Below, one piece after another: positions 44,152-62,100 of a stretch of DNA of 64,000 bases (its first letter is position 1; each line of letters begins with the position of its first letter). The translations under genes and the position numbers were made by a program. The stretch comes from Nitrospirota bacterium (GTDB taxonomy: Bacteria; Nitrospirota; Thermodesulfovibrionia; Thermodesulfovibrionales; Dissulfurispiraceae), in assembly GCA_963790025.1 (NCBI GenBank), contig CAWBMP010000004.1, forward strand, positions 960,001 to 1,024,000, read 5' to 3'. The notes under the pieces are model-generated. The model was not told the origin of the DNA and searched no databases. It worked only from the letters and a program-made list of their open reading frames with translations.

Positions 44152-44175
44152 ACTCTTCGTTCCTCCTTTTCAAAC

Positions 44176-44217: not shown

Positions 44218-44241
44218 CTTTAAATGGCTATTACTCTTTGC

Positions 44242-44409: not shown

Positions 44410-44429
44410 TGTGCACCTCCTTTTCAAAC

Positions 44430-44478
44430 AAAAAAGGCGGCCGGCTTTTCACTCCGAAGGAGCTACTTGCCGGCCGCC
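44430..44478 (-). terminator. Terminator/attenuator directly before RBS
   Basis: Minus GGCGGCCGGC...GCCGGCCGCC-T6-GTTTG-AAAAGGAGG. Confidence 0.85.
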
Positions 44479-44504
44479 ATGATTGCTGCAATTAAGAAGT
44501 TATG

Positions 44505-44816
44505 TTACTGCGGTGATATCCCGCTGCGTACCATATGTAACCGAGTTTTGCCGTCACATATGTCCATGGCAGCGATAAGCATGGAAAGTACTCTTTCTGT
44601 TGCAAGCTGAAGTTCCTTTTCAGACCACTCGGGGTGGGCAGCTTTGTTGGCCCTATAAACTTCCATGAAGTTGTAAGACTTTTTGATCGTGTTGCAATTA
44701 ACGCGGATGGAAGAGTTAATCGCCCCTCCTGTCGCCACGTTATCCCCGGCAACTGCAAGACCTGCCGGTATTAAGGCTAAAGCTAAAGCAATTGCGAGAC
44801 TGTAATGTGTTTTCAT
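44505..44816 (-). CDS. Small exported hypothetical protein
   Basis: SD AAGGAGG; signal peptide MKTHYSLAIALALALIPAGLAVA; two Cys. Confidence 0.65.
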   Translation of the reverse strand: MKTHYSLAIALALALIPAGLAVAGDNVATGGAINSSIRVNCNTIKKSYNFMEVYRANKAAHPEWSEKELQLATERVLSMLIAAMDICDGKTRLHMVRSGISPQ

Positions 44817-44862
44817 AACTTCCTCCTTAGGGCTTGCGAATAAATAACTTGCCCTTAAAAAC

Positions 44863-44908
44863 AAAAAAAGGCACAGCCCCTTCCAATGGTTGGGAGACTG
44901 TGCTCTTT
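44863..44908 (-). terminator. Leader terminator/attenuator upstream of first cassette gene
   Basis: Minus GCACAGTCTC..GGGGCTGTGC-C-T7-G. Confidence 0.75.
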
Positions 44909-45753
44909 CTGTGTTGCCTAATTTTTAACTTATTGTTTTTCGCAAAAAATATTTAAGCGGCAGGATAAAAATTCTCCAATACTGTTTTTTTGAGATGATG
45001 TTGATATGTCGCTTGAGGAGTAGATTGATCCAAGGTTGATATAAAACCTTTTGGAAATCAATCAAAAAAAACTTTATGAAAATTGTCGTTAGATTCGTCA
45101 GTGAAGGTTATTTCTAAAAATACTATAATAATAAAGGGCTGCCTTGTAAATAAAAAAGGGACATTAACAGTGAAACCAATTGAAATGTCTATGAATTACG
45201 TTTGATAAAAACTACGCTCCCCCCATTTGCCCCAAGATGGCGGAAGAAACTCGTAAAAACAAAGAGATACTCTTTAAAAGAACCTTCAAAAACAAAAGAA
45301 CTCTTAAAAGAATAAAACGAAAATATTTATTCATACATAATCGGTATATAATTTCACTCATTCCCAATTACTTTTCAATGTGTTCACAGTTTCCCAGTAA
45401 CTCTCTAGTCATGACTATAGTCACCTGTTGACTTACTAATCAGTCATTACTCCAGTCACCCTTCTTCTGCCTTTTGGTAGTGTTGAAAGGTTAGAGGTTA
45501 GACAACCTCAAACCTTTCAACTTGCTATCAATAAGAAAGCTACATGCTAACAAAAAAGCGTCTTCCTTACTGCTGAAAGCATATTGCTATCGAAAGTAAT
45601 ATCTATTTACGTACAGCATACAGCGTTCAGTGTTCAGCGTACTCCGTTGCAAACAAGACAGTTAATTATTGCAGTTTCAGTCGGTTAGAGCTTTTTAACT
45701 GTACGCCGAACACAGTACGGTGAACATGTTACGCAAAAGGGGGGTAGAGTATT

Positions 45754-46737
45754 ATGAAGATAGGAATTGATGTAGGATACGGGTATACCAAGGTCGTCAC
45801 AACGCATTCCTCAATTATCTTTCCATCCCGTGTGGGTCCTGCCAGGGAGTTGTCGTACTCGCTCAAAGAAGGCACTGACGTTATGGGAGAAACTGTCGAA
45901 TATGAGGGCGAACGATATTTTGTAGGGGAGAAGGCAAGACATAGCGATGTTACCTACACCCTCATGACAAGAGGCTGGATCGAGAGCAAGATGTATGGGG
46001 CATTGCTTACTTCGGCCCTTACCAGGGCAATGAACGGCAGATATGCTTTAGCTGACCCTGAAGAAATAATTATTGTCACCGGCCTTCCCGTAGATTATAT
46101 GAGAGATAAAACCAAAGCCGAAGAGAGCCTCGGAAAGGCGTGCGATGGGATTGGCCTCCGTATCACAGGCATCAATATAATACCGCAGCCTTTCGGCTCT
46201 TTTTTTGACATGTTTTACGATAATAACGGTGATATTGCCGGCAGCGCACCTTTCTTAAAAAGGATTGGGATAGTCGATATCGGTTATCACACCACGGATT
46301 ATATTCTTATCGAGGAGGCTCAACGCAATATCGAGAAGGCCTCTGGCAGCGTTCCTACTGGGGCCCATGAGATATACGATATTGTAGCCAGAGAATTAAA
46401 GAACATGTTCGACAGAGATACAGTTACTGCGGAAGAGGCCGAGCACTGCGTTAAAACCAAACATTATAAAGTCTCGGGTCAAAACAAAGATATGGGTACC
46501 CTGGTTGGCCGAGTGCTGTCACAAGTGGGGCAAAAGATAACTGGTATTGTTAAATCTAAATGGAACCTTGAAGGAGAAATTGACATTGTCCTGCTAACCG
46601 GAGGCGGAGCTGCGCTTATTCAGCCGCACATCTCATCTATAGCGCATACTCACTTCCTGATAAATGAACCCCAGATGGCCAATGCGCGAGGATATTATAA
46701 GAGGAGCGTCATCCTGGAACGAAAAATTAAAGGTTAG
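45754..46737 (+). CDS. ParM/StbA-family actin-like ATPase
   Basis: GIDVGYGYTK, TGLP, PQP, DIGYHTTD, LTGGGA, ANARGY. Confidence 0.9.
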   Translation: MKIGIDVGYGYTKVVTTHSSIIFPSRVGPARELSYSLKEGTDVMGETVEYEGERYFVGEKARHSDVTYTLMTRGWIESKMYGALLTSALTRAMNGRYALADPEEIIIVTGLPVDYMRDKTKAEESLGKACDGIGLRITGINIIPQPFGSFFDMFYDNNGDIAGSAPFLKRIGIVDIGYHTTDYILIEEAQRNIEKASGSVPTGAHEIYDIVARELKNMFDRDTVTAEEAEHCVKTKHYKVSGQNKDMGTLVGRVLSQVGQKITGIVKSKWNLEGEIDIVLLTGGGAALIQPHISSIAHTHFLINEPQMANARGYYKRSVILERKIKG

Positions 46738-46752
46738 CGGAGACATGGGCGG

Positions 46753-47049
46753 ATGGAAAAAACAGCAATATGCTTCATACGATTGTACCCTGATAATCCG
46801 GAGGATGCCCTTATTATTGCCGGCCTCGGCACAAGAAAAAGAAAAGGGGAGAAATCCAGGGTCATAAAAGACATACTTTATGCTCATTTCAGAAATAAGA
46901 AGAGCAGTCTCCCGGAACCGCCAACCGAATCACGCAAGGGGATTAAAGGACCATCGTCTCAGCTCCATCCGAAAAGCACTGCGCTGTCGGATGATGAAAA
47001 AGTGACATTAAAAAAGAACCTCGACGAACTTTCAGATATGCTTATGTAG
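46753..47049 (+). CDS. Putative ParR-like adaptor
   Basis: Small basic gene right after the ParM-like gene; RHH-like N-terminus, Pro-rich linker, acidic C-terminal helix. Confidence 0.6.
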   Translation: MEKTAICFIRLYPDNPEDALIIAGLGTRKRKGEKSRVIKDILYAHFRNKKSSLPEPPTESRKGIKGPSSQLHPKSTALSDDEKVTLKKNLDELSDMLM

Positions 47050-47075
47050 TTCACCCGCGAAGAATTTGGTTCCCT

Positions 47076-47867
47076 CTAAAAAGCACTCTTCACCACTCCG
47101 CCATCAACCCTCAATGGAGCACCCGTAGTTGCAGACGAAAGCGGGCTGGCGATATAGGTTACCAATGCAGCAACCTCCTCGCACGAGGCAAACCGCTTGA
47201 TTAGAGATGTGGGCCGGACCTTCTCGAAAAATTCTCTTTCGACTTCCTCGATAGTTTTACCTTGGGCCTTTGAATATGTCTCGACAAAATCACCTACCCC
47301 CCGGGATTTTGTTGGTCCTGGAAGCACGGTATTTACCGTGATGCCTGTACCGGCCACTGCCTCAGCCACGCCGCGGGCCACCCCCAGCATTGCTGTCTTG
47401 GTTACGCCATAATGAATCATGTCACCAGGAATTTGCACACCGCTCTCGCTGGAAATAAAGATGATGCGCCCCCAGTTGCGGCGCTTCATTCCGGGGAGAA
47501 AAAGCCGGGTCAGGCGAATTCCGCTTAAAACATTTACCTCAAATATACGCCGCCAGTCATCATCCGAGGTGTCTTCAAAAGACCGCAGCTCATAGATGCC
47601 CAGGTTGTTGACCAGTATTTCTACATCGGGATATCCCCTAGCAAGTTCATTAGCCGCTTCAGCCGTACTCAGATCACCGGCAAATCCATAAAGTGTGCCT
47701 TTGCCGGTTTCCCGTAACTTTGCTACCGCCGTATCTACCGAAGCCTTTCCGCGGCCATTGACGATCACGCGGGCACCTTCCCGCGCAAGTGATTCTGCTA
47801 TCGCATAACCAATCCCGGCCGTGCTGCCGGAAACAAGAGCAAGTTTATTTTTGATCTTTAAATCCAT
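47076..47867 (-). CDS. SDR oxidoreductase
   Basis: GSTAGIG, LVNN, YGVTK, DGG. Confidence 0.93.
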   Translation of the reverse strand: MDLKIKNKLALVSGSTAGIGYAIAESLAREGARVIVNGRGKASVDTAVAKLRETGKGTLYGFAGDLSTAEAANELARGYPDVEILVNNLGIYELRSFEDTSDDDWRRIFEVNVLSGIRLTRLFLPGMKRRNWGRIIFISSESGVQIPGDMIHYGVTKTAMLGVARGVAEAVAGTGITVNTVLPGPTKSRGVGDFVETYSKAQGKTIEEVEREFFEKVRPTSLIKRFASCEEVAALVTYIASPLSSATTGAPLRVDGGVVKSAF

Positions 47868-48082
47868 GATCTACCCCCTCTCCGCCTTTTTTTATGATTA
47901 TATCGCTCTCTTGTTTGTCAATCAACCTGGACCCTGACCTTGTAGTTGGTTGTACGAAAGCCCTGCAGCATTTTCTTAAAGCCGCTGCAATTTTATGATA
48001 CAATCATCTAAGGTACAGCAGCGTGTAATTTAAAACTTTGGGACCTGAACGCTGTGATCCTCTTAATCAAATGGGAGAAGGC

Positions 48083-49132
48083 ATGGATGAAGAACGTCTG
48101 CAACATCTGATGAAACTTATCAAGGGCGATGGAGAAGTAAAAAGCGTAGAGGGTCGCTGCGAAGTAAAGGAAAATGATAAATCCGACGTGGAGCTTCTCG
48201 ACGTATACTCGCGTGCAGTTATAACGGTAGTCGACGCTGTAGGGCCGGCAGTTCTGAGTGTTTCTGTCGGCGCGCAATCCCGGGCGAACAAAACAGAACA
48301 GATCGGATCGGGCTCTGGTGTTATGATCGCTCCGGACGGCTATATCCTAACGAACGATCACGTTGTGCATAACGCTACACAGCTATCTGTAACACTTACG
48401 GATGGAACAACACTCCCGGCGACAGTTGTCGGTGTCGACCCGGCTACAGATCTGGCTGTGATCCGTGCTGACGGTTCCGGGCTGCCGTATGCAACACTCG
48501 GCGATTCAGGCTCATTGCGTGTGGGGCAATTAATCATTGCAATAGGTAACCCCTTTGGGTTCCAGTCCACGGTATCTACCGGCGTTGTGAGTGCTCTTGG
48601 CCGGGCCTTGCGAAGCCGTCAAGAACGGCTCATTGAGAATATTATTCAACATACGGCGCCTCTGAATCCCGGAAACTCTGGCGGTCCGCTGGTCGATTCC
48701 AGAGGGAGGATCGTCGGCATTAACACAGCGATCATCATGATGGCCCAGGGGATAGGTTTTTCCATTCCGTCAAATACAGCCGAATGGGTAGTGTCTCAAT
48801 TGCTTACTCATGGCCGGGTGCGCCGGGGGTATCTGGGCATTACTGCACAGCAGCGGCCTCTCACCAGACGATTGGTCAGATTTCATAATCTGAATAGCGA
48901 TTTTGCCGTCGAGGTTGTGTCGGTCATACCTGACAGTCCAGCCGCTAAGAGCGGCATACTGGAGGGTGATATAATAGTGGCTATTAACGATCAGGGTGTG
49001 ACAAGCGTGGACCACATCCATCGCTTTCTCGGTGAATGGCCTGTGGGAAAGTCGGTGAAGCTCACTGTTATCCGTTGGCAGGAGCGGCTCGAAAAAGAGA
49101 TTATTCCCTCTGAGGAAAAAAGTCTGAATTAG
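48083..49132 (+). CDS. HtrA-like trypsin protease with one PDZ, no obvious signal peptide
   Basis: GSG, TNDHV, DLAV, NPGNSGGPL, RGYLGI. Confidence 0.92.
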   Translation: MDEERLQHLMKLIKGDGEVKSVEGRCEVKENDKSDVELLDVYSRAVITVVDAVGPAVLSVSVGAQSRANKTEQIGSGSGVMIAPDGYILTNDHVVHNATQLSVTLTDGTTLPATVVGVDPATDLAVIRADGSGLPYATLGDSGSLRVGQLIIAIGNPFGFQSTVSTGVVSALGRALRSRQERLIENIIQHTAPLNPGNSGGPLVDSRGRIVGINTAIIMMAQGIGFSIPSNTAEWVVSQLLTHGRVRRGYLGITAQQRPLTRRLVRFHNLNSDFAVEVVSVIPDSPAAKSGILEGDIIVAINDQGVTSVDHIHRFLGEWPVGKSVKLTVIRWQERLEKEIIPSEEKSLN

Positions 49133-49168
49133 CTTAACAAACCTGACATCAATAAGGAGGATTGCGTC

Positions 49169-49666
49169 ATGTCAACTTCTGAAGCGGCTCAATTATCAGA
49201 GGCTATTCTACTTAGAGTAAAAGAAGTGAAGGAAATTTATGCGGGGTTGGATGAGAACACTGCCTCCAGCGCTCCTTCCGGTCGATGGTCACCCAAACAA
49301 ATCCTTTCTCACCTCTGTGGCCCTGAAGGACGCGGTCATTTACCGCTCATTAAGGTTTTTCTGGAACATGACACCCCTCGAATAGACCTTGACATCGGGA
49401 ATGATTTCTTTTCGGGGAAGCGTTCGCGGATAACCGTTACAGAGCTTTTGTCGGAGTTTGAACAAGATTACAGCAGAATAGCAGAATTTGCCTCTGGTTT
49501 AACAGGAGAACAGCTGAACAGGAAAGCTCATATTCCTGCACTGAAAGAATCGCCATTGGGCGAGTACCCTACGTTGGCAACATGGATTAAAGGGCTGGGG
49601 GAGTACCACGTCGGCTCTCATATAGACCATTTGCGGGAGATTTTAAAGGCCCTCGGGGCGGCATAG
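49169..49666 (+). CDS. DinB-like protein
   Basis: WSPKQILSHL ... H..SHIDHL. Confidence 0.75.
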   Translation: MSTSEAAQLSEAILLRVKEVKEIYAGLDENTASSAPSGRWSPKQILSHLCGPEGRGHLPLIKVFLEHDTPRIDLDIGNDFFSGKRSRITVTELLSEFEQDYSRIAEFASGLTGEQLNRKAHIPALKESPLGEYPTLATWIKGLGEYHVGSHIDHLREILKALGAA

Positions 49667-49693
49667 GTTTCCATGAAATGCCATACGTAAGTT

Positions 49694-50635
49694 CTATTTA
49701 AAAATAAGTTCCGGTTTTTTCATGAACACGCGTGTATCGGGCGGTACCGAGTCTGTAATCCACACGTTCCCCCCGATTACCGAACGGGCGCCAATCACTG
49801 TATCGCCACCCAATATGGTCACGCCTGAATAGACGATTACGTCATCCTCAAGTGTTGGATGGCGTTTTTCATTGCGGAGCTGTCCCACTTCATCTTTCGA
49901 GAGAGAAAGTGCCCCAAGCGTGACTCCCTGATATATCCGTACGCGGTCTCCGATTTTCGTTGTTTCCCCGATAACCACACCGGTCCCGTGGTCGATGAAA
50001 AAACTCTCCCCGATTCGGGCGCCAGGATGAATGTCGATGCCTGTCACGCTGTGCGCATATTCAGACATTATACGGGGGACCAGCGGAACATTTTGCCTAT
50101 AGAGCTGGTGTGCCATCCGGTGCACGGTAACTGCAAAGAGACCGGGATAACTGAATATCACTTCATCGTAGCTCTTCGCTGCAGGATCACCGTCATAGGC
50201 AGCGCGAACGTCCTTGGCGAGCAAGGTCCTCATATGAGGAAGCTCCTGCATAAAATTTACAGTAATCTCCTCGCCTTGCTCTTCGCATACGACGCACTCA
50301 AGGTTACGGCGGCGGCATTCATGACGTATTGCAAAGGTGACCTGTTTCGACAACTTTTCAAAAAACGTCGTTACTTCCTGCCCATAATAGTAGACCAGAT
50401 TAACTTTATCTATTCGCGTGGGGGAGAAGTAACCTGGATACAATAATCCACACGCCATATGCGTAATCTCTATGATAGATTCCTTTGAAGGCAGTGGTTC
50501 CAGGTCTACATGGTCAAAACAATTTTGTGCATGGCAGACTGCTACAAGGTTCTCCACTATTACAGGAATTTGGTCGCGAAACTGCCTATGTTTTTCTATA
50601 CTGATACTACACTGCTCAGAATCAGTCCTGTCCAT
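49694..50635 (-). CDS. cysE: Serine O-acetyltransferase
   Basis: GDPAA, GIDIHPGA, IDHGTGVVIGET, KRHPT. Confidence 0.92.
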   Translation of the reverse strand: MDRTDSEQCSISIEKHRQFRDQIPVIVENLVAVCHAQNCFDHVDLEPLPSKESIIEITHMACGLLYPGYFSPTRIDKVNLVYYYGQEVTTFFEKLSKQVTFAIRHECRRRNLECVVCEEQGEEITVNFMQELPHMRTLLAKDVRAAYDGDPAAKSYDEVIFSYPGLFAVTVHRMAHQLYRQNVPLVPRIMSEYAHSVTGIDIHPGARIGESFFIDHGTGVVIGETTKIGDRVRIYQGVTLGALSLSKDEVGQLRNEKRHPTLEDDVIVYSGVTILGGDTVIGARSVIGGNVWITDSVPPDTRVFMKKPELIFK

Positions 50636-50725
50636 TGCCGGCCCTTATGCCTCCACAAAATCATAAATTCATGAGAGGCGTACCAGGTACGCCCCTCGAA
50701 ACAATATCTCCCTTTCACTCTACCC

Positions 50726-51319
50726 CTAAACACCTGCTGCCGCAGTCAGCGCCGAGTATGGCACAGCACGGCGGGCCCATTCGCTCCCCGGGTATTTCTC
50801 CGTCAGGGTATCGTAAGCCCTGCGCAATGGTGAAGCCTCATGAAACTTCTTGTACTCGGCCACACCCAGATAAAAAATAGCCTCTGGAGTTGCCCCTGCA
50901 TTTGGATGCTGCTCTATGACTGAAGTGAATGCCTTGATCGCGTCGTTAAAGTGGTCGGTGTCGAAAAAGACCTTTGCCCTGCCAAGTTCAAGATGGGCAA
51001 GCAGGTCATCAATGGGGACATATCCCACTATCCGGTGGTGCTCTTTCCCCGACTTACCGTGGATTATAAGGGTCGGGGTCCATTTGATGTTAAATTGTTC
51101 CATAAGCTCAACCGGCTTATCAAAGAAGCACTGGGTTTTCAGAGGAATGAAATTATCCTGGATAAACTTCTGGACCTGCTCACTTGAATACGGACCCGTA
51201 TTCATTGCAGCGCAACCAATTCAACCGTCAAACCAGAAATCATGATAGATCGGCTTGCCTTCCCTTTTAGCCTTTTTTATTGCCTCGTTGAAGTTCCCTT
51301 CCCATATTATCTCGGCCAT
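50726..51319 (-). CDS. Selenocysteine thioredoxin-fold + TPR-like protein (UxxC), 197 aa
   Basis: SD GGAGG, MAEIIWE...DFWFDG-U-IGC; in-frame TGA 51223-51221; hairpin TGAATACG-GGTC-CGTATTCA 16 nt downstream; WTPT cis-Pro motif. Confidence 0.85.
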
Positions 51320-51359
51320 AACGCACCTCCGTTTGGATTAATGGTTAGCTCCATATCAA

Positions 51360-54300
51360 TCATTTATCATGAAACTGACCTGATGTCAAACACCCTGTTC
51401 CTGCACGCACCCGTTTGCCGGTGATTATCCTTGACGCATTGCTTTCAAGTGTATCTATCCTACCCTCAAATGCTGCATTAGCCAAAATCGTGGTTGTCCT
51501 CTGAAATGCTGCCGACGCAAGAAAACTTTTTGAGTACAGCGGTATCTGACTGATGCCGAGGAGCACGGGAGTCGCTGTCGGAGGCTTCAAGCCTCTTCGC
51601 CGGGTCCTGTCACACTCATCTTCAAATTCGCTCTTATGAATAATATCACCTGTCAGAAACCTTGCCCCCCGGCTGTCTGTAACTTTCACAAATCCGGTCA
51701 TCTGGCTAAGTATTATTTCAAAATGCTTGTCATGTATTACCACTCCCTGTTTGCGGTATATCTTCTGGGCTTCATCGAGTAAATATTTCCACACTGCTCC
51801 GCCACCTGCAGCATGCAACAGATCATGGGGGTTGACTGCACCGTCAATGTTACTGAGCTCCGCCGCTCTGCGCGGCCTTCTTGCTTCAAGAAGGTCAATA
51901 ACCTCCGGAAGCCCGCCGGTTATGTCCATGGGAGTGACAACTGCTCCACCGGTATGAAATGTTCGCAGGGTAAGCTGGGTCCCGGGCTCACCTATGGACT
52001 GAGCTGCGATAATACCCACCGCGTCCCCTGTCTCTGCGGGCCTGCGGCTGCCGACATTGAATCCGTAGCAGCGCGCACAAACGCCGCGTTGCGCCTTGCA
52101 GGTAAGCACAGACCGCACTTTGACCTTTTCTATTTTTGCCTTGCTGATTTTTGCCGCTGTCGCTTTATCCAAAACGGTGCCATACGATACGAGCACAGTG
52201 CAGGAGTCTATGTCCAGAACGTTATCTGCCAATGCCCTGCCGGTTATTCTCTCCTCCAGAGAAATTTCTACTGTACCGCCGTTCTTCAGCGGTCCAAGGT
52301 AAATGCCTTCGAGCGTCCCGCAATCATCCGTAGTTACGATGAGGTCACGCGCAGCACTCACCAGCCTTCTCGTAAAATAGCCCGCCGCCGGCGTCTTCAT
52401 GGGGCCATCCACCCTGCCCTTTCGCGCCCCGTGCGTGGAAAGAAAAAACTGGAATGCACTTAACCCTTCTCTGAAATTCGATGTAATCGGCATTTCTACA
52501 ATTTCACCCGTGGGCTTGGCCATCAAACCCCTCATGCCGTTTATTTGGCGTATCTGGTTGAAGTCGCCTCTCGCGCCAGAATCACACATCATAAAAAGGG
52601 CATTGGATTCTACATGCCGGTCTTCTTTTAATACGCGCATCGCTTCAGATGTTATCCTGTCGGTTGCTCTCGTCCATACGTCGATTTCCTTATTATGCCT
52701 TTCGTTGTCAGACATCAAACCGGTTTCATAATGGCTCCTCACCTCCGCTGCTTCCTCCTCTGCCTCAGCAACAATGGCCGCCTTTTCGGAAGGGACGAGC
52801 ATGTCATCAAGACAAAGCGATATGCCCGACAACGTCGCATATTTAAACCCAATGCCTTTTATCTCATCCAGAAACCTGATCGTCTCCCTGACGCCGCACT
52901 TTTCATAGCACAACTCGATTAAGCCGGCAAGTTCCTTTTTATTTAAGACTTTATTTATTACCGCGAAGGGTATACCTGCTGGAGTTATGGCATAGAACAG
53001 CACCCTTCCAGCCGTTGTTCTTACCAAGGCGCCATCTATTCTGACCTGAATGCTGGAATGTTCTTCTACAATATTGTTTGCATATGCAATACACACCTCG
53101 TCCACATCCGAGAAAAGCATTCCTTCCCCTTTTCCCCTTTTTCCCGATTTCCCATCGCTGGTCAAATAATAAATACCCAGGACAATGTCCTGAGACGGCA
53201 ATAAAGCAGGCCTGCCGTTGGCCGGATGGAATAAATTGTTAGTGGACATCATGAGGACCCTCGCCTCTATCTGTGCTTCAAGTGAGAGAGGCACATGCAC
53301 TGCAATGGTATCTCCGTCAAAATCGGCATTGAAGCCCGAACACACAAGAGGATGGAGCCTTATTGCAGCGCCTTCAACAAGGACAGGATCAAAGGCTTGC
53401 ATGCTTAATTTATGCAAAGTCGGCGCCCGGTTTATTATGACTGGATGCTCGGCAATTATATCATCGAGGGCGTCCCAGACTTCTGGTTTCTCTTTTTCAA
53501 AAAGCCGCTTTGCCTGTTTCAGCCTTGGGGCAAACCCATTTTTAATAAGCCACCGGTATATAAATGGCCTGAAAAGCTCAAGTGCCATTGCCTTCGGAAT
53601 GCCGACCTGATGGATTTTCAATTCCGGCCCTATAGTAATATGTGCCCTTCCGGAATAGTCGACCCTTTTGGCAAGAAGATTATGTCTGAATATTCCACTC
53701 TTAGAGCTTATCATCTCTGAGAGCGATTTAAGCGGCCTTTTTTGAGACCGGTTTTTGACGGCAACATTCCTGCCATTGTCGAGCAGGCTGTCAACTGCGG
53801 CCTGAAGAAGCCTTTTTGCATTCTGAAGTATTATTTCTGGAGCGCCGAGGTGAATAAGTCTTCGCAAGCTTTGATTTTTGTAAATGACCTTGCTATAAAG
53901 CAGATTAAGATCGGAGGCAACAGTAGTCCCGGCGTCAGGAAAAATTATGGGGCGCAGGTCAGGGGGCAATACAGGCAGCATGTCTAAAATCATCCACTCC
54001 GGTTTGTTTCCGGACTTCAGGAGTTTCTCGATCAAAGAGAGTCTGCTTCTTTTTCTCAGGGATAACGTGCCATTCTCTTTAAGTCCCTTCGGAATGGCAT
54101 CCAGGTCAAGGCCTGTAAGTAGTTTCCTGATCGCTTCCGCACCGGTTTCAACATGGAAATGATCGCATGAAGTCCGGTATTTTCTGTACTCTTCATGTGT
54201 AATTGTCTGGTTCTGTTTGAGACCGCTGTCGCCCGGATCAATTACAACATAAAATTCGTATTGCACGATTTTTTGGACCTGCCGGGGAGGCAGTCCCAGT

Positions 54301-54671
54301 ATCCTTGCAAGAACGCTTTTAGGCCCTTTGTAATACCAGATGTGCGCAACAGGCGCAGCGAGAGTTATGTGGCCGAGTCTTTTTCTTCTCTCTTCCGGTT
54401 CCAGCAGCCCCGTACCGCAAGTCTTACATGAGGCTGCTCCACCGTTATCTGTGCCACAAGAACATTTACCCTTTCTTACCGGGCCGAATATTCCTTCGCA
54501 GAATAACCCATTTTTTACCGGGCCGCCATTTTTTAAACTGAATGTTTCCGGCGAAGACACCTCGCCATAAGATAATAAACTCTTCCCGAGGGGACTTAAA
54601 AGACCGATTCTAAGAGAATCAAATGCCTGATTATCGATCATAGGTTGTTGGCTGCAGGGACATGCCTCCAT
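51360..54671 (-). CDS. rpoC: Orphan divergent RNA polymerase beta-prime paralog (1103 aa; start uncertain)
   Basis: GLFCEGIFGP, PVLPPDLRP, KRVDYSGR, NRAPTLH, NADFDGD, SGARG, GEPGTQLTLRTFH, DITGGLP, DKHFE, AGTG. Confidence 0.95.
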   Translation of the reverse strand: MEACPCSQQPMIDNQAFDSLRIGLLSPLGKSLLSYGEVSSPETFSLKNGGPVKNGLFCEGIFGPVRKGKCSCGTDNGGAASCKTCGTGLLEPEERRKRLGHITLAAPVAHIWYYKGPKSVLARILGLPPRQVQKIVQYEFYVVIDPGDSGLKQNQTITHEEYRKYRTSCDHFHVETGAEAIRKLLTGLDLDAIPKGLKENGTLSLRKRSRLSLIEKLLKSGNKPEWMILDMLPVLPPDLRPIIFPDAGTTVASDLNLLYSKVIYKNQSLRRLIHLGAPEIILQNAKRLLQAAVDSLLDNGRNVAVKNRSQKRPLKSLSEMISSKSGIFRHNLLAKRVDYSGRAHITIGPELKIHQVGIPKAMALELFRPFIYRWLIKNGFAPRLKQAKRLFEKEKPEVWDALDDIIAEHPVIINRAPTLHKLSMQAFDPVLVEGAAIRLHPLVCSGFNADFDGDTIAVHVPLSLEAQIEARVLMMSTNNLFHPANGRPALLPSQDIVLGIYYLTSDGKSGKRGKGEGMLFSDVDEVCIAYANNIVEEHSSIQVRIDGALVRTTAGRVLFYAITPAGIPFAVINKVLNKKELAGLIELCYEKCGVRETIRFLDEIKGIGFKYATLSGISLCLDDMLVPSEKAAIVAEAEEEAAEVRSHYETGLMSDNERHNKEIDVWTRATDRITSEAMRVLKEDRHVESNALFMMCDSGARGDFNQIRQINGMRGLMAKPTGEIVEMPITSNFREGLSAFQFFLSTHGARKGRVDGPMKTPAAGYFTRRLVSAARDLIVTTDDCGTLEGIYLGPLKNGGTVEISLEERITGRALADNVLDIDSCTVLVSYGTVLDKATAAKISKAKIEKVKVRSVLTCKAQRGVCARCYGFNVGSRRPAETGDAVGIIAAQSIGEPGTQLTLRTFHTGGAVVTPMDITGGLPEVIDLLEARRPRRAAELSNIDGAVNPHDLLHAAGGGAVWKYLLDEAQKIYRKQGVVIHDKHFEIILSQMTGFVKVTDSRGARFLTGDIIHKSEFEDECDRTRRRGLKPPTATPVLLGISQIPLYSKSFLASAAFQRTTTILANAAFEGRIDTLESNASRIITGKRVRAGTGCLTSGQFHDK

Positions 54672-54773
54672 TATTTTGTCGCAACAAGACGCTATAGTAA
54701 ATATTACTTTCTTAATTGATATTTACGGCATTTGTTTTACGATATGTATATCGATGATATTTTAGGAGGACAA

Positions 54774-55019
54774 ATGGTAACAACTACAATATCACCTAAA
54801 TATGAGGAAGAAGCACTTGTTGCAGCAGGTCTTATCAACAGGACATCGGTTATTAAGCTCACTGAAAGCATTGCTATCTTCGCAGCAGACCTGAGCCTGA
54901 AATGCGGGCTGCCGATGGCCGATGCTGTTGTATACGCCACTGCACGGGAGGAAGATTGCCAGGTAGTGACTGGTGATGCCCATTTTAAGGGGCTCGACAA
55001 AGTTGAGTTTATTTCATAA
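54774..55019 (+). pseudogene. Collapsed vapBC: AbrB-type antitoxin N-terminus fused to the C-terminal half of a PIN toxin
   Basis: SD AGGAGG; MVTTTISPKY then ...LPMADAVVYATA..VVTGDAHF; PIN N-terminal acidic motif missing. Confidence 0.7.
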
Positions 55020-55122
55020 TTGGGGAGTGTACTAAGTACGTCCCTTAGTGTGGTGTCCCCGGCACTGTCCCACATGCTATTATATATAAACGGTATGGAA
55101 ATCGATTATTTGGAGGAAGCAC

Positions 55123-55833
55123 ATGAGAGTATTTGTCGTTGCAGTATTGGGCCTTATTCTTTTTGCCGGGCAGTCTTTCGCGGGAGATAATAAACAGATG
55201 AGTGAAAAGGAAAAACTGAGTTACAGCCTTGGATATGCACAGGGCAGCAACATGGCTGGTTTTTTCAAAACCCAGTCTGTTGACATAGATACAAATGTTT
55301 TTGTCGAGGCCTTCAAAGCCGGCCTTTCCGGAACCAAACCGCTTCTGACGGACCAGGAAATACATCAAACCCTGGCGGACTTTCAGAAAAGCATGGCGGC
55401 CAAACAGGGGAAAGTCATGCAGGAATCAGCTGAAGCTAATAAAAAAGCTGGGGAAACGTTTCTTGCTGAAAATAAGAAAAAGGCTGGTGTTATAACACTG
55501 CCAAGCGGCCTTCAATATATAGTCCTGAAGGAAGGCACAGGGGAAACTCCTAAAGCAACGGACAAGGTCACAGTCAATTATCGGGGGACCCTCATCGACG
55601 GGAGAGAATTTGACAGTTCCTACAAACGCGGAGAGCCCGCAGTGTTTCCTGTCAATAAAGTGATCCCTGGCTGGACCGAGGCGCTGCAATTAATGAGAGT
55701 TGGTTCGAAATGGAAGGTCTTTATACCCTCAAATCTAGCTTACGGCGAAAGGACCGCAGGCCAGATGATAACGCCCAACTCAACCCTTATCTTTGAGGTC
55801 GAGCTTCTTTCTATAGAATCAGATAAACAGTAA
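55123..55833 (+). CDS. FKBP-type PPIase (Mip/FkpA-like), exported
   Basis: Signal peptide, SYSLG, SGLQY, YRGTL, FDSS, VIPGWTEAL. Confidence 0.95.
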   Translation: MRVFVVAVLGLILFAGQSFAGDNKQMSEKEKLSYSLGYAQGSNMAGFFKTQSVDIDTNVFVEAFKAGLSGTKPLLTDQEIHQTLADFQKSMAAKQGKVMQESAEANKKAGETFLAENKKKAGVITLPSGLQYIVLKEGTGETPKATDKVTVNYRGTLIDGREFDSSYKRGEPAVFPVNKVIPGWTEALQLMRVGSKWKVFIPSNLAYGERTAGQMITPNSTLIFEVELLSIESDKQ

Positions 55834-55925
55834 GAACTGATAGTGAAGGGCCCACAAAAAAAGGGTACACATCCTTTATTTTCCGCAAATTAACATCCCT
55901 GCGAAAAAATGGGGACCTGTACCCA

Positions 55926-56188
55926 TCAATTATATTCTCTATACACTTCCTTGCGATGTATCACTGCGATAATGAAAAAAGTATTTTTGTCTGGCTTTAT
56001 CCAATATATTACTCTATAATAGTCAACCCTGAGTCTGAATTTTTTTTGAATTTTCCTTCTATAGGCTTGCAATCGGCTGATGGATCGCAAACCAACCTGC
56101 TTACGGCATTCAGTATGCTGATTGCATTTTGCTTATCGATTTTTTTTAGCTGTCTGTGGGTATTGGAGGTCAGGCCTATACTGTTCAC
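55926..56188 (-). pseudogene. RelE/ParE-family toxin split by a frameshift in an A8 tract
   Basis: RQLKKIDKQ..CKPIEGKFKK in one frame; FRLRVDYYRVIY..VIHRKEVY in the -1 frame; T8 at 56040-56047. Confidence 0.8.
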
Positions 56189-56536
56189 CTTTCCCGGTAA
56201 CTGCGAGTGTGGATGTCTAACGGTATAGTCCTGACCCCCAGTTTGCAGTTTGCAGTTTTCGGTATTCATAGCAACAATGTTTAAATGTTTACAGAGAGTG
56301 CGTGTTCCTGTCAACATCAAACGACACCCTAAGCTACTTCTTTGATAAGTAAATAATGATTAAATGTACTGGATTAGGTAATATAACGATGAAAGTATTA
56401 TGTATACTATGCCGGAAGATGTGCGGGCGGAATAAAAGGATAGGAGTAGTGTTCGAGACGTGACATGAATAGTGTGTTGAAGGTTTTGGTTTCGATGTTC
56501 CTGATGACAGGGTTGTGTGGGTGCGGTTGAGGTAAG

Positions 56537-57127
56537 ATGAAACAATTCATTCTCTCAACAATTGTGACAGTGGCGCTATGCGCTACGGCGTGCACGATTG
56601 CTGGAAGAGACTTTGTTAGAGCCGATTGGGAAAAACTAAATTATGGGGAGATGACACGCGAGCAAATAATTCAGGAATTTGGTGAGCCACTTCACGAAAC
56701 CCCACTTGAAATTAATAATTCTTCATGTACAGCTTTAGTTTATGATTTCGGCGGACCGACAGTAGGAACACGAACCCAGGTGTTTTACTTTTTCTCTAAT
56801 AGACTCATAGGGTATTTTTTTACCGGCGATCTTAAGGGCGCAGGTATTGACCCTGAGTCTTTTTCAAAAATCTCTCTTATACAAAAAGGGGTGACAAGAA
56901 TGGGCCAGGTCGATGCCCTTTTTGGAAAGGCACGTGGAATCTTTATATACCCGATGACGAAGAATAAAGAGGACAGGACTTTTGTTTATGCGTACTTGCA
57001 TGGGGGATTCAGTCGTCCAGATGAAAGAATGTTGATTATTAATTATGATACCCAAGGAATAGTGAAAGATTTTAAATATTCCATTATATTAGGCCTCAAG
57101 TCTTTCCTCGACTTTATAGTGATGTAA
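56537..57127 (+). CDS. Putative lipoprotein with two BamE/SmpA-like repeats
   Basis: Hydrophobic leader ending ATAC; GEMTREQIIQEFGEP and GVTRMGQVDALFGKA. Confidence 0.65.
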   Translation: MKQFILSTIVTVALCATACTIAGRDFVRADWEKLNYGEMTREQIIQEFGEPLHETPLEINNSSCTALVYDFGGPTVGTRTQVFYFFSNRLIGYFFTGDLKGAGIDPESFSKISLIQKGVTRMGQVDALFGKARGIFIYPMTKNKEDRTFVYAYLHGGFSRPDERMLIINYDTQGIVKDFKYSIILGLKSFLDFIVM

Positions 57128-57184
57128 TTCCTTTCGATGCGGCACTTATAACCTGAAGTGCCGCGCATTCTCTCCAGAAATTTT

Positions 57185-58825
57185 TTACTCTGTATATGGA
57201 TAATTATACTGTTGCAAATCCCTCGTGGGTTGATGAAACATTTCATTGTAAACCTGTTTAAACCTCGGATCATCTGACCCTATCTGTGTAACCACCGTAG
57301 CTCCGCAGCCTTTCGTGTGCGAAGCCCCGCCGCATGCCAGAGCCTGCCGGAGGTCAATTTTGCCGATGAACGTCCCATATTTGCAAGGAGTCGCGTCGAA
57401 CGCTGCATTCAACCATTGCGCATCAGTACGGCTGGCCACTATTGCGCCATCGCCGGTAGTGCTCGGCGTTGTGAGGTCATAAGACGAATCGAAAAATGGC
57501 GTTATATCTGCAGTAGTTTGGGTTGTTGGTGAAAACCCGGATGCTACGAGCCCGCCGACAGCACCGGCACTGCCTCCAATAAGCGCTCCCGTCCATACTG
57601 CATTAAGCCCAGCGGAAGAAGCTGCGCCAGCAGTGGCACCGGCCCCGCCCCCAGCGCCGGCACCCCCAGGTATAAGAGCACCAATTGCTGCACCACCAAC
57701 CGCCATAATAACAATACACGCAATAAACACAAACAGGCCCGTAAATCCCGACTGAGACTTCGACCACTGATACAACAATATCTCCGAATTATCAAAGTTC
57801 GCGCCCTGTCCAGTAACCTGAGTAAATCCAACCTGGTTCCCATCAACCCACGTCGGGTTATAAACAAAATCGGCATACGAACCACTATGTGCTTTCATTG
57901 CAACTGTCCAGTCCTGGCTAAGCCAGTACGACACAGTCACTTTCACTGTTTTCGTAAAAAAACCACCGTGTGATTCTTTTTTTATGTCCTGCCGTATCTT
58001 CGAATTAGCCACAAACGCCACAGCCGCCTTATGTGTCATCAATGCAAGCGCCACCAGATTGTACAGTCCTGCCTGCGTGATGTTATGGAAATCACCGTCT
58101 CCGTTGTCGAAATCCCTGAGCCCCCGGTGTGTGTAACACGGGTCGCTGTTGAACCGCTGGTGAAAGTAATAGTTGCTGTGATTGATCTTGTCCTGATCAG
58201 CGCCGAAGATAAAGTAAGGCTGCAACATCGTTCTGCCGAAGTCATACTCGGCAACATCGTGCATGATCCGGGTATTATCGACATTCGGCGGGTCGGATGT
58301 GGACAACTGGTGCTCCGTCGGATCGCACCCTGGTCCGGAATTATAATCCAGCCAAGCGAAATTATAATAATGCTTCCCCATGAAATGATGAAAATTGCCG
58401 GGTGTGATCTGCAGAAGATCCGCCCTGATGTTGGGACCTACCTGCGCCATACGCATCAGCGCGAGAGTCGCGGTATTTGTGGCTGGGTCATATTTAGCGA
58501 GGACCATAGGCGGCGGTGCGCTCGGCAGGACAATTGTATTTGATAGCTGATTGCTGGGAATATTGAGGTATACAGCGTCTTCCCTGCCTGCCATTCGGGC
58601 CCACGCATACTTCAACATCCCATGGGGCGCCGACGTGTCCGTAGGAAGCGGCGGCACTGGCCCCGGAGTGCCTTGATATATGCCGCCGGCATATGCGCTT
58701 GCTATTCCCACTTGCAGGCCCAGTTCTTTAGTCTCCTCATGCGGCATGAAGATCAGAAATGTCCACGTGAATAGTGTCACAAGGAATGCGCTGATTGTCT
58801 TATGAACCCATGTCTTTTGTGCCAT
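57185..58825 (-). CDS. Exported hypothetical protein with Gly/Ala-rich hydrophobic hairpin
   Basis: 546-aa ORF, SD GAGGA, N-terminal hydrophobic leader, internal FVFIACIVIMAVGGAAIG..GALIGGSAGAVGG. Confidence 0.75.
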   Translation of the reverse strand: MAQKTWVHKTISAFLVTLFTWTFLIFMPHEETKELGLQVGIASAYAGGIYQGTPGPVPPLPTDTSAPHGMLKYAWARMAGREDAVYLNIPSNQLSNTIVLPSAPPPMVLAKYDPATNTATLALMRMAQVGPNIRADLLQITPGNFHHFMGKHYYNFAWLDYNSGPGCDPTEHQLSTSDPPNVDNTRIMHDVAEYDFGRTMLQPYFIFGADQDKINHSNYYFHQRFNSDPCYTHRGLRDFDNGDGDFHNITQAGLYNLVALALMTHKAAVAFVANSKIRQDIKKESHGGFFTKTVKVTVSYWLSQDWTVAMKAHSGSYADFVYNPTWVDGNQVGFTQVTGQGANFDNSEILLYQWSKSQSGFTGLFVFIACIVIMAVGGAAIGALIPGGAGAGGGAGATAGAASSAGLNAVWTGALIGGSAGAVGGLVASGFSPTTQTTADITPFFDSSYDLTTPSTTGDGAIVASRTDAQWLNAAFDATPCKYGTFIGKIDLRQALACGGASHTKGCGATVVTQIGSDDPRFKQVYNEMFHQPTRDLQQYNYPYTE

Positions 58826-59107
58826 AAGAATCCTCTTTTTATTGTCCCGTCCCCTGTAGGGGGGTAAAAACCAGGGGACGGGAATGTTAGGCCTTCATCA
58901 GGATATTACTTTTAAATTCTTCTCAGTGTACCCAGGAGATTATTTCTCCATTATGATTTATTGTTTCATTGTGCAATAGGAGGGACATCGATTACATAAA
59001 ATTCTTGACATTTTTATATAATCCTTCTTAATTTACCGTATGTGCTTTGATTATTCGGGGTGATTAGTTCCAGAACTCTGCGCACTACTATGCTTAAGGA
59101 GGTATGT

Positions 59108-62100
59108 ATGGGCGTATCCAGAAGAGATTTCCTGAAGATTTCCGGCGGATCTGTTCTTGCGGGGTCTTTGGGAGTGGGAGTTAAACAGGCAGAAGCAGAT
59201 ACAGCAGAGCTTAAAATCAAAAATGCAAAAGAGACCCTTACCATATGCCCATTTTGCTCCGTGGGTTGCGGCATTGTTGTACACTCGGCAAACGGCAAAG
59301 TCATAAATACCGAGGGCGATCCAGATCACCCCATAAACGAAGGCACGCTCTGCTCAAAAGGCTCCTCGATGTATCAGGTCATAAACAATCCGTCCCGGCT
59401 CACAAAGCCGCTCTACCGTGCACCAGGCGCCGCTCAATGGAAAGAGGTTGAGTGGGAATGGGCCTTTGATGAGATTGCAAATAGAATAAAAGATACGCGT
59501 GACAGGACGTTCAAAACCACCTCAAAGTCAAAAGTGAAAGAAAAGGGCCCTGATGGAAATGAAGTAGAGGTAGAGAAGGAATTCTTGGTCAACCGGACCG
59601 ACGGGATCGCCCATGTGGGAAGCGCCGCCCTTGATAATGAGGAATGCTATCTGATACAGAAATGGGTCCGCTCTCTGGGACTTGTTTATGTAGAGCACCA
59701 GGCCCGAATATGACACTCCGCAACTGTAGCGGCTCTGGCAGAGTCGTTCGGACGCGGTGCAATGACAAACCACTGGATAGACCTCAGGAATGCCGATGTT
59801 ATTCTCGTAATGGGTGGAAACCCTGCGGAAAACCATCCCATATCAATGAAATGGATCATGATGGCCAGGGAGAGAGGCGCAAAACTCATAGTCGTTGATC
59901 CGCGTTTTACCCGTACTGCAGCAAAGGCCGATATATATGCCTCACTTCGTTCAGGGACCGATATCGCTTTCCTCGGCGGCATGATTAAATACATTTTCGA
60001 TCACAACCTCTACTTCAGGGATTATGTCGTGAATTATACCAATGCAGCATTTCTTGTTAATCCTGACTTCAAAGGCCCTGGAGAATTGGAAGGACTCTTC
60101 TCCGGATATGACCCCAAAGCCAGAAAATATGATAAAAAGACATGGTCCTTCCAGATGGACGCAAGCGGCGTACCGAAGAAAGACCCGACACTCAAAGATC
60201 CCCATTGTGTTTTTCAGCTGCTAAGGAAACAGTATGCACGTTATACTCTCGATAAAGTTTCAAGCATTACCGGGACCCCGAAGGAAGACCTCCTGAAGGT
60301 ATACAAAACTTATGCCTCAACCGGAAGGCCGGACAGGGCAGGCACCGAATGTTACGCAATGGGCTGGACCCAGCATACGGTAGGGACCCAGAATATAAGG
60401 ACCATGTCAATAATCCAGCTCCTTCTCGGCAATATTGGAATAGCCGGGGGTGGAGTAAACGCCCTGAGAGGCGAATCCAATGTCCAGGGTTCTACAGATC
60501 ACGGGCTGCTTTTCCACGTATTGCCGGGTTATCTTCCGGTGCCCAGTGCTACAGTTGTTGATCTGAAAGCCTACATAGACAAATTCACCCCGAAGACAAA
60601 AGAGCCTAAAAGCGTGAATTGGATGAGCAATATAGGCAAATACATGACGAGTTACCTGAAAGCTATATACGGGGACCATGCGACAAAGGAAAATGATTTC
60701 GGATATGCCTGGCTTCCCAAGCCCGATGAAGGAATGAACGCATCATGGCTCATGATTTTTGACCAGATGTTCAAGGGGAAATTCGATGGTTTCTTTGCCT
60801 GGGGACAAAATCCCGCATGTTCGGGTGCGAATTCTATCAAGACGAGAAAGGCACTGGCAAAGCTGAAATGGATGGTGAATGTAAATCTGTTTGATAATGA
60901 AACAGGCTCGTTCTGGAGGGGCCCCGGAGTGAATCCAAAAGAAATTCAGACTGAGGTCTTCATGCTTCCATGCTGCTCATCGGTTGAAAAGGAAGGCAGC
61001 ATCTCTAATTCAGGGCGCTGGGCACAATGGCGATACAAGGCGATACCTCCTATCGGCCAATCCAAACCGGACAGTGACATCATGAATGAACTCTTCTTCA
61101 GAGTAAAAAAACTCTACGCCCGCAAAGGCGGTGCATTCCCAGCCCCGATACTGAACCTGACATGGAACTATGGTGAAAGAGGTCCGGACGGGAAGGTCAA
61201 AGAGATCAATACTCACCTCATCGCCAGGGAGATTAACGGGTACTATCTTGAAGACCTATTTGACAAGAAAGCCACTCCTCCAAAGCAGCTCGGGAAGAAG
61301 GGAGAACTCTGCGCCACCTTCGTGCATCTTCAGGACGACGGATCTACGTCATGCGGCAACTGGATATATAGCCAGAGTTATACTCAGAAAGACGGGAAAA
61401 TCATTAATATGATGGCGAGGAGGAAAAAGACCGATCCTACAGGGCTGGGACTTTATCCTGAATGGTCGTGGTGCTGGCCAGTGAACAGGAGGATAATCTA
61501 CAATCGCGCATCCGTTGACCCGCAAGGCAGGCCGTGGGACCAGAAAAGGGTCCTTCTTAAATGGAACGCCGAAAAAGAAGATCCCAACACAAAAAAGCCC
61601 GGCGTATGGGAAGGAGATGTGCCTGACGGCCCTGCTCCTCCGTTAGCTTCGGAAAAAGGGAAATACCCTTTCATCATGAAGCCGGATGGCGTGGGTTCTG
61701 TGTTCGGGCCGGGACTTAATGACGGGCCGTTCCCTGAACATTATGAGGCGCTCGAATGTCCCGTGCATGAAAATCCGATGTCGAAGCAGAGGATCAATCC
61801 CGCAATCAAACTTTTTGCTGATACAGACACGTTCTCGTGTGATTTAAGGTTCCCTTACGTGGCTACAACATATCGCATTTCCGAGCACTGGCAGACAGGT
61901 GTCATGACGAGGCATGAGCCGTGGCTGCTTGAGGCGGTCCCGCAGCAGTTCGTCGAAATGAGCGAGGAGCTTGCCAGGGACAAGAATATTAAATCAGGCG
62001 ATAAAGTAACTATAAAATCCGGTCGCGGCGAAATATGGGCCGTTGCAGTGGTGACAAAAAGATTCAAGCCTTTTAAGATCGCGGGCGGCATAGTGCACCA

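Follow-up and report, generated by a model that had tools for sequence, protein, structure and literature searches.

What role does a second, shortened beta-prime subunit of RNA polymerase play in a bacterium that also has a housekeeping copy? This question is raised by an rpoC paralog in a stretch of 64,000 nucleotides from a Nitrospirota genome (hereafter the window). An initial annotation of the window had pointed to two prolines in the bridge helix of the encoded protein and to the loss of its SI3 insertion and jaw. Our analysis leads us to favour, with moderate confidence, the view that the paralog is an accessory beta-prime of a type IV secretion element of the Thermodesulfovibrionales (Nitrospirota), which would swap into the host core enzyme. 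The source genome is metagenome-assembled (5 contigs, 98.8% complete), and ordinary chromosomal genes surround the paralog on its 1.74-Mb contig. Coordinates are window positions unless marked C4, and residue equivalents follow E. coli RpoC numbering. Genomes, loci and protein representatives carry G, L and P handles.

A second beta-prime subunit

Profile searches scored the paralog at 1262.6 bits against the rpoC model TIGR02386 (cut-off 963.5) and detected all five Rpb1 domains of Pfam above their cut-offs (PF04997, PF00623, PF04983, PF05000 and PF04998). The housekeeping rpoC of the same genome encodes 1,369 amino acids (aa), and the two proteins share 50% identity over their full length. 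It is this housekeeping gene, on another contig, that lies directly after the sole rpoB found, and no rpoB lies near the paralog. The gene thus is a genuine beta-prime paralog, as had been proposed. One rpoB each, and no second copy, was found in the source genome and in four further genomes discussed below (G018, G099, G011 and G098). Judging from the N-termini of orthologues, translation may start at the second ATG (M11). By score and catalytic features the sequence falls within the RpoC family; what it fails to provide is the continuous proline-free bridge helix typical of RpoC, the jaw and a place in the rpoBC operon.

A search of 5.8 billion proteins retrieved short relatives (1,053–1,127 aa, 66–78% identity, about 15 clusters including fragments) and long relatives (1,306–1,401 aa, 53–59% identity), with Nitrospirae/Thermodesulfovibrionales as source names. 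When a profile of 18 paralogs was run against 1.84 billion cluster representatives, short relatives reached 2110 bits and long ones 1891, and the next match scored 1420. Within the class (390 genomes), only the source genus and one other genus gave C-terminal matches of at least 49% identity. In a maximum-likelihood tree of 50 RpoC rows all paralogs formed one clade on a long stem (SH-like approximate likelihood ratio test, SH-aLRT, 100), with 15 short rows in one clade (100) and 8 long rows in another (85). The second copy of G011, which is highly divergent, came out as sister to the short and long clades, on a very long branch. The paralog clade was placed tentatively near the base of the order's housekeeping copies (support 24), and an origin within the host family was not rejected by the approximately unbiased test (p 0.074). 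A tblastn search of PLSDB returned 69 records, all of at most 47% identity; these were ordinary rpoC genes on large or mislabelled replicons, and no relative of the family was among them.

We rejected a second rpoC of G013 as a member of the family; it is housekeeping-like, lies on a 4.9-kb contig and probably represents bin contamination. The second rpoC of G011 (L033, G011:C98, 6556–10488) is of a third kind and encodes a protein of 1,311 aa that is about 50% identical and has no bridge-helix prolines. It shares L783R, T786G and L796F, and no DITGGLP motif was found in it. Genes for methylases, a GGDEF protein and an EcoRI-type restriction-modification pair flank it, and a coupling-protein-like gene (26% identity) lies about 24 kb away on the same contig.

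Two prolines mark the bridge helix of the clade

The bridge helix of the paralog reads HGARKGRVDGPMKTPAAGYFTRRL, and the housekeeping copy is free of its two prolines. We aligned the paralog to solved E. coli chains and to K-12 RpoC, where residue n of the paralog lines up with E. coli n+30 across this region; P757 and P761 are therefore equivalent to E. coli 787 and 791. Both prolines reported by the initial annotation are present, and the canonical helix that it quoted for comparison (...TANSGY...) is indeed that of E. coli K-12. Overlooked at that stage was the age of the prolines. Judging from the alignments, they are an old, defining feature of the clade and older than the deletions described below. 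The pattern P-x-K-T-P is common to short and long paralogs, including long forms that keep SI3 and mostly the jaw, and it is retained between clades of only 53–59% identity. Exceptions are one paralog with a gap of one residue at the first proline and the second copy of G011, which has no bridge-helix prolines.

A degenerate DNA pattern for the di-proline helix matched 10 stretches in 185,579 species genomes (nine listed genomes from two Nitrospirota genera), 4 stretches in a metagenome collection and none in viral contigs. Since every stretch in the 185,579 genomes belongs to the paralog family, the pattern does not arise by chance; all four metagenomic stretches belong to the family as well. 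Any proline in the helix core was found in 3 of 138 other top-scoring beta-prime representatives with a located helix, and one of the three is a member of the paralog family. Two beta-prime representatives unrelated to it also carry a core proline, P0232 (1,213 aa) at the E. coli 791 position (…TAQRTPDAGYLMRRL) and P0183 (2,029 aa).

We called a difference clade-typical if the position was invariant in 25 housekeeping copies and different in at least 85% of the paralogs, with the G011 copy left out. Eight of the 54 clade-typical differences fall within E. coli 774–805 (I774L, L783R, A784V, A787P, A791P, L796F, V803A and Q805R), and the bridge helix is the densest cluster of fixed changes. Others lie in the trigger loop (M932L, K1132M, A1142I), beside the catalytic motif (A456G, Q465T), at R275K and near the C-terminus (L1347N, K1348A, N1350R). 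The neighbouring changes that were fixed together with the prolines probably compensate for them.

Archaeal mutational work describes natural bridge-helix prolines as 'exceedingly rare' (PMC2988716). In archaeal scans, a proline at S824 (E. coli 793) was superactivating and most other proline substitutions caused a large loss of activity (PMC2988716, PMC2776397), and A822P, at the E. coli 791 position, left activity clearly detectable (PMC2776397). The hinge behaviour of the paralog must differ from that of the housekeeping enzyme, which may make it either fast or slow.

SI3 and the jaw were lost stepwise, after the prolines

Relative to E. coli, the window copy is without residues 942–1114 and 1118–1131 (SI3-type), 1160–1211, which form part of the jaw (SBHM) that follows the trigger loop and precedes the C-terminal part of the clamp, and 706–718. 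The housekeeping copy has an SI3-type insertion of 181 additional residues where the trigger loop of the paralog reads RTFHTGGAVVTPMDITGGLP, and a jaw piece of 50 additional residues at SNIDG/AVNPH. Both the missing SI3 insertion and the direct ELSNIDG–AVNPHD join had thus been read correctly; alignment to the housekeeping copy, proposed as a check, revealed that SI3 and jaw are retained there and that the two proteins differ. The losses are in frame and at domain boundaries, again as described. With TFHTGGAVVTPMDITGGLP, the trigger loop of the paralog is two residues longer than in SI3-less Firmicute enzymes, of which the chains 8i23_D and 6wvj_D have retained some 45 residues of the jaw.

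The notion of a clean deletion needs to be qualified. The SI3 gap 942–1114 is identical in the six short copies with listed gaps and therefore points to one shared loss event; the extra 14-aa trim (1118–1131) occurs in the window copy only. Jaw gaps, in contrast, vary among relatives: 1160–1211 in the window copy and G001, 1155–1213 in most copies, 1155–1216 in one and 1151–1215 in another. Endpoints that differ randomly among orthologues had been named as evidence against the initial proposal, and for the jaw they do differ. A long paralog, G098a, kept SI3 and independently lost the jaw (1155–1207), so that the alignments indicate two jaw losses, one in the short clade and one in G098a. The loss of 706–718 was seen in all six short copies listed and in none of three full-length long copies, and P0010 has a private deletion of E. 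coli 1263–1297. This pattern suggests stepwise trimming rather than one clean excision, later than the prolines.

In E. coli, the SI3-jaw pair slows trigger-loop folding and prolongs hairpin pauses. Engineered polymerases without SI3 (dSI3) or the jaw (djaw) are active and have his hairpin pauses about threefold and fivefold shorter, respectively, and the two effects are non-additive because SI3 and jaw form one interacting module (PMC4227799). SI3 is described as essential in vivo in E. coli unless suppressed by A941T. The loss of one of the two may have been followed by that of the other because both form one module. By analogy with these active enzymes, the pause-resistant polymerase that the initial annotation envisaged is a fair prediction.

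Could the same changes have been selected by an inhibitor? Phage T7 Gp2 acts via the jaw to inhibit E. coli polymerase, and streptolydigin-type and bridge-helix-cap inhibitors bind at the bridge helix. A spare or decoy beta-prime that escapes jaw-binding phage proteins, or small molecules acting on bridge helix and trigger loop, either for self-protection or as an element-borne defence, would fit the two independent jaw losses, the concentration of fixed changes in the bridge helix, and the AbiEii and PIN genes on the element in the source genome. However, the window and the 40 kb rightward of it showed neither a biosynthetic cluster nor any known gene for an inhibitor, the fate of the gene tracks the transfer genes described below and not the host, and the prolines predate the jaw loss. 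We regard inhibitor escape as unlikely.

Catalytic residues are kept under relaxed but purifying selection

A catalytically dead protein had been offered as a further option. Against it, 20 positions are unchanged in 23 of 23 paralogs, namely the Mg triad D460/D462/D464, R425, N458, R731, K598, H777, R780, T790, R933, H936 and two four-cysteine zinc sites. Q504 is kept in 22 of 23, and M932 is leucine in all. Conservation peaks are shared with the housekeeping copies and fall on the active site (0.91), the F-loop region, the bridge helix (0.89) and the trigger-loop base. The bridge-helix window is conserved within each group (0.97, 0.89 and 0.85) and differs between groups (cross 0.60).

The conserved active site also bears on the idea of a non-catalytic regulator that, instead of serving as a polymerase subunit, ties up beta, sigma or other factors, for instance in order to slow the host while transfer takes place. 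Such a protein could do without a partner beta gene, which is indeed missing, and changes of sigma-contact residues (R275K, E295A) and of a conserved C-terminal motif (L1347N, K1348A, N1350R) would be in line with it. But sequestering needs neither the Mg triad nor the nucleoside triphosphate-contacting residues, R933/H936 or the zinc sites, yet all are kept in 23 of 23 paralogs across a deep divergence, and conservation peaks at the active site. A regulator of this kind is the least credible of the explanations that we weighed.

The ratios of nonsynonymous to synonymous substitution rates (dN/dS; Nei–Gojobori method, NG86) were 0.11–0.21 in 10 paralog pairs (dS 0.43–1.53), compared to 0.018–0.034 in 12 housekeeping pairs of the same genus at similar dS. 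Three-taxon arithmetic on these values gave about 0.15 on the source genome's own branch. Intact copies are thus under purifying selection. Constraint on the paralog is nevertheless about sevenfold weaker, and the gene is dispensable. Within the genus, G000, G006, G003 and G009 have the gene at full length, and in G001 it is open to the contig end. The copy in G007 has one frameshift, that in G004 three lesions (a 14-nt duplication, a frameshift in an A-run and a TAG), and in G002 all but 64 aa of the gene has been deleted. Neither G005 (81% complete) nor G008 (74% complete) yielded a copy.

These lesions would be expected if the paralog were a decaying relic, a captured rpoC eroding in a dying integrated element, with the deletions as decay that has not yet hit the frame in the window copy. 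Its evolution, about ten times faster than that of the housekeeping copy (end branches about 0.2 versus 0.02), the variable jaw endpoints, the private deletions (14 aa in the window copy, 1263–1297 in P0010) and the separation from the operon in the source genome would fit as well. We nevertheless consider a relic rather unlikely. The dN/dS values stay low in 10 of 10 pairs and on the source genome's branch, 230 of the 632 columns that are invariant in housekeeping copies do not vary in any paralog either, and all 23 have retained the catalytic and zinc residues. Furthermore, all losses are in frame and touch only surface domains that the E. coli enzyme can do without in vitro (PMC4227799), and the prolines survived between the distant short and long clades. 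Overall, the sequences suggest a functional protein that is neither dead nor a pseudogene.

The paralog is linked to a probable conjugative element

Missed by the initial annotation was the membership of the paralog in a probable conjugative element of the type IV secretion kind. In G018 and G099, which carry long paralogs, the genes directly upstream on the same strand encode an SLT transglycosylase, a VirB11-like ATPase, TraC/VirB4, the type IV coupling protein and a Replic_Relax-like protein of 272 aa. Further upstream are TraU, a TraF-like thioredoxin, pilus-type ATPases, a pilin and a secretin homologue, and an actin-like gene of the ParM/actin-like protein (ALP) type follows the paralog in both genomes. 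TraC_F_IV, P-loop_TraG and T4SS-DNA_transf were above cut-offs in G018. The mating-pair genes TraU (34–36 bits versus 26.5), SLT, T2SSE/T2SSF and Secretin were above cut-offs too, and TraF and TraG_N were weak. The order coupling protein, Replic_Relax-like gene, paralog recurs in the metagenome contigs L087 (long) and L088 (short). It is found again in G006, G001, G009 and G003, with VirB11, VirB4, coupling-protein and/or Replic_Relax-like genes upstream of the paralog, and in decayed form in G004. The paralog thereby takes its place in the DNA-processing module of the element, with the order coupling protein, relaxase-like gene, beta-prime, thioredoxin/TPR gene where present, and ParM-like gene. 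In the source genome the same collinear cluster begins just past the right end of the window and runs from the Replic_Relax-like gene at C4:1025647 to the secretin gene near C4:1051700, with VirB4/TraC and coupling-protein homologues of 62% and 82% identity at C4:1026432–1030993.

The fate of the paralog follows the transfer genes of the element. Where the paralog is broken in G004, the coupling protein is in at least four frame pieces; next to the frameshifted paralog of G007 it carries a TAG; and in G002 (98% complete), where the paralog is deleted, the search for a coupling protein found none. On the ParM side, synteny of the flanks extends over the genus, and the dS of the paralog matches that of the housekeeping gene; therefore, the element has apparently been resident since the ancestor of the genus.

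Features of the window

The features of the paralog and its element are listed in Table 1.

Table 1. Positions of the rpoC paralog, its diagnostic parts and associated genes in the window.
Feature	Position	Strand	Remarks
rpoC paralog (beta-prime)	51360..54671	-	1103 aa, stop-free open reading frame; translation, Pfam, TIGR02386
Catalytic NADFDGD motif	53310..53330	-	Residues 448–454, intact; flanks changed in paralog clade (A456G, Q465T)
Third in-frame loss, approximate site	52602..52613	-	E. coli 706–718 (13 aa), after residue 688
Bridge helix with P757 and P761 (E. coli 787, 791)	52362..52433	-	Residues 747–770; nearby clade-typical L783R, A784V, L796F
Minimal trigger loop RTFHTGGAVVTPMDITGGLP	51906..51965	-	Residues 903–922; no SI3-type insertion; R933/H936 equivalents present, M932 is L
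Jaw junction SNIDG/AVNPH	51825..51854	-	Residues 940–949; 50 housekeeping residues (E. coli 1160–1211) gone
Thioredoxin-like/TPR gene	50726..51205	-	Directly downstream; linked to paralog in G003, G009, G007, L088; remains in G002
ParM/ALP-type actin-like partition gene	45754..46737	+	50% identical to gene beside long paralogs in G018, G099
98-aa open reading frame after ParM-like gene	46753..47049	+	No family match
Truncated PIN-domain open reading frame	54732..55019	+	Profile positions 53–119 of 120; in 451-bp gap upstream of paralog
546-aa protein	57185..58825	-	No Pfam family; 43–46% homologue in G018 transfer cluster and near paralog in L087

The ParM-like gene matched the Pfam families ALP_N (87.6 bits) and MreB-like_C (62.3 bits) above their cut-offs and the NCBIfam ParM model at 98.6 bits, far below its cut-off of 417. 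A magnetosome MamK was considered for this gene and dropped in view of the ALP_N/ParM-type profile matches and the transfer-gene context. By its position, the 98-aa open reading frame (ORF) may encode a ParR-like adaptor. The truncated PIN ORF probably marks a rearrangement that separated the paralog from the upstream operon; the spacer of about 11 kb between them holds an FKBP gene, a BamE-like gene, the 546-aa transfer-cluster homologue and a molybdopterin oxidoreductase operon. No Rfam match was found in window positions 44000–57200.

Two more PIN genes and an AbiEii gene are part of the element just outside the window (L094:14733–16387, L095:1267–1701). Four genes at 47076–50635, encoding a short-chain dehydrogenase, a trypsin-PDZ protease, a 165-aa protein of no assigned function and a hexapeptide transferase, are found at this place only in the source genome. 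Their neighbours, the ParM side and the thioredoxin/TPR gene, are adjacent in G003, G009, G007 and L088, which suggests a private insertion into the element. A 307-aa protein without family (L088:4136–5056; also L025, L026, L027, L029 and L034) is encoded between the Replic_Relax-like gene and the short paralog at six loci and is absent from the window, the next 40 kb and the long-paralog loci. Beside the ParM end, an HD-domain dGTP triphosphohydrolase-like gene (43132–44151, minus strand) is conserved across the genus; it matched anti-phage dGTPase models more weakly, below their cut-offs.

Elsewhere in the window, the catalytic subunit of the molybdopterin oxidoreductase (59060–62254, plus strand), with a twin-arginine translocation signal and an Fe4S4 domain, consists of two same-frame ORFs split by a TGA at 59711–59713. 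H-S-A-T-V follows this TGA, which probably is a selenocysteine codon rather than a break, and genes for Fer4 and NrfD-type subunits come next (62263–63998). Two glutamine synthetase genes (17579–18991 and 23957–25369, plus strand) have identical Pfam scores and are 100% identical over at least 300 nt (17558–17857 and 23936–24235), 6378 bp apart. Two ammonium-transporter genes lie between them, and a third amt, glnE and a nitrogenase-type gene are nearby.

An accessory subunit of the host polymerase?

Several observations weigh against our view that the paralog is an accessory beta-prime of the element. In the source genome, about 11 kb and the PIN remnant part it from the coupling-protein/relaxase operon, and neither an integrase domain in the ORFs scanned nor an attachment site was identified. 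The 272-aa protein matched Replic_Relax in three of four members, but at best with an E-value of 1.5e-4 and 22.4 bits, below the cut-off of 25.3; it had an Atlas feature score of 0.95 to clusters with PF13814 in 17–19% of members, and a PDB profile search gave weak matches only (E-value at least 0.018). The paralog evolves about 7–10 times faster than the housekeeping gene, and it is broken or lost in three of the eight genus genomes with a visible locus. On the clamp helix, R275 and E295, which we take to contact sigma, are changed (R275K in 20 of 22 copies, E295A in 15 of 22 including the window copy). Promoter-like sites are not enriched (7 versus 6.0 expected), and a terminator scan was also at chance level. 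E. coli 787 corresponds to archaeal 818 and lies inside the central bridge-helix segment, which is relatively proline-sensitive according to the archaeal scans (PMC2988716, PMC2776397); therefore, the enzyme may be slow, not fast. Finally, all genomes concerned are metagenome-assembled.

If the paralog nonetheless is an accessory beta-prime, it would compete with the host subunit for the sole beta/alpha/omega set and form a second core enzyme that differs in nucleotide addition and pausing. Its bridge helix would have a permanent bend, or a local unwinding, at 787/791. In the source genus, the absence of SI3 and jaw would in addition weaken hairpin-stabilised pausing; since the pair is lost, the enzyme should pause less at hairpins. 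More speculatively, the altered polymerase might serve the element, on its long one-directional transfer operon or by transcribing or priming transferred DNA. The transfer operon and incoming single-stranded DNA are favoured here solely because of the position of the gene.

A more far-reaching version, in which the element converts the host core polymerase into an element-dedicated enzyme via its own beta-prime and the prolines and, in the source genus, the SI3-jaw loss adapt it to an unusual template or task, seems unlikely to us. Such an enzyme might transcribe or prime the single-stranded DNA that enters during transfer, or traverse the transfer operon of about 50 kb in one direction without pausing. 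Priming comes into question because the paralog sits where other elements carry transfer primases, and the ORFs scanned showed no primase domain. If true, a dedicated enzyme would represent on a bacterial mobile element what the Pol IV/V split is in plants.

Mutagenesis is the usual way to probe the roles of the enzyme's moving parts, namely bridge helix, trigger loop, SI3 and jaw. Here they form a natural graded series under selection, from prolines only (long paralogs) through additional loss of the jaw (G098a) and of SI3 and jaw (short paralogs) to a minimal trigger loop (window copy). If the paralog assembles with host beta, it would be the first case found in which a mobile element exchanges a catalytic subunit of the polymerase instead of adding a factor. 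It would represent a new route for elements to control host transcription, and a ready-made pause-altered enzyme for mechanistic work. The literature searched (subscription journals not covered) yielded no account of either a second Nitrospirota rpoC or a beta-prime borne by an element.

Comparison with known systems

With the housekeeping RpoC the paralog shares the five Rpb1 domains, the catalytic triad, the two zinc sites, the switch regions, bridge helix and trigger loop. It differs by its location on an element and outside the rpoBC operon, its dispensability, the two prolines and 52 other clade-typical changes, the lack of the SI3-type insertion, the jaw piece and 706–718, and an about sevenfold higher dN/dS. 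The YonO-type two-barrel polymerases of phages and plasmids are highly diverged, single-chain or split, and without most beta-prime domains. We rejected this type for the paralog, which is near-full-length, 50% identical to the host copy and above the equivalog cut-off.

Parallels exist among engineered enzymes. The E. coli dSI3, djaw and dSI3-djaw polymerases miss the same domains with near-equal boundaries (PMC4227799; PMC11077087), corresponding to 942–1131 and 1160–1211 here; E. coli SI3 is given as 188 aa (PMC4227799). Unlike the engineered dSI3-djaw enzyme, the paralog is natural and selected, combines the losses with bridge-helix prolines, and leaves a housekeeping copy in the cell. Plant RNA polymerases IV and V likewise have a paralogous largest subunit that shares other subunits with the main enzyme, an assembly we predict for the paralog, and they carry a natural bridge-helix proline (PMC2988716). 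That proline aligns with archaeal S824 (E. coli 793), whereas those of the paralog are at archaeal 818 and 822. In contrast to Pol IV and V, the paralog is bacterial, borne by a mobile element, and has kept its catalytic and trigger-loop residues.

Actinomycetes carry rifampicin-resistant rpoB paralogs that give a variant core enzyme. Similarly, the two alpha subunits of Francisella are a case in which a second copy of a core subunit yields a variant core enzyme (PMC3294249), as we propose for the paralog. Both the Francisella alpha and the actinomycete rpoB copies are chromosomal host genes, whereas the paralog is an element-borne beta-prime with domain losses. On long transfer or capsule operons, polymerase gains processivity from NusG/RfaH paralogs, such as UpxY, that are specific to a plasmid or operon. 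Like them, the paralog would be a mobile or operon-linked gene that reprograms elongation, a likeness by analogy and not by homology. Unlike them, it would not bind polymerase as an accessory factor but would replace the catalytic subunit itself.

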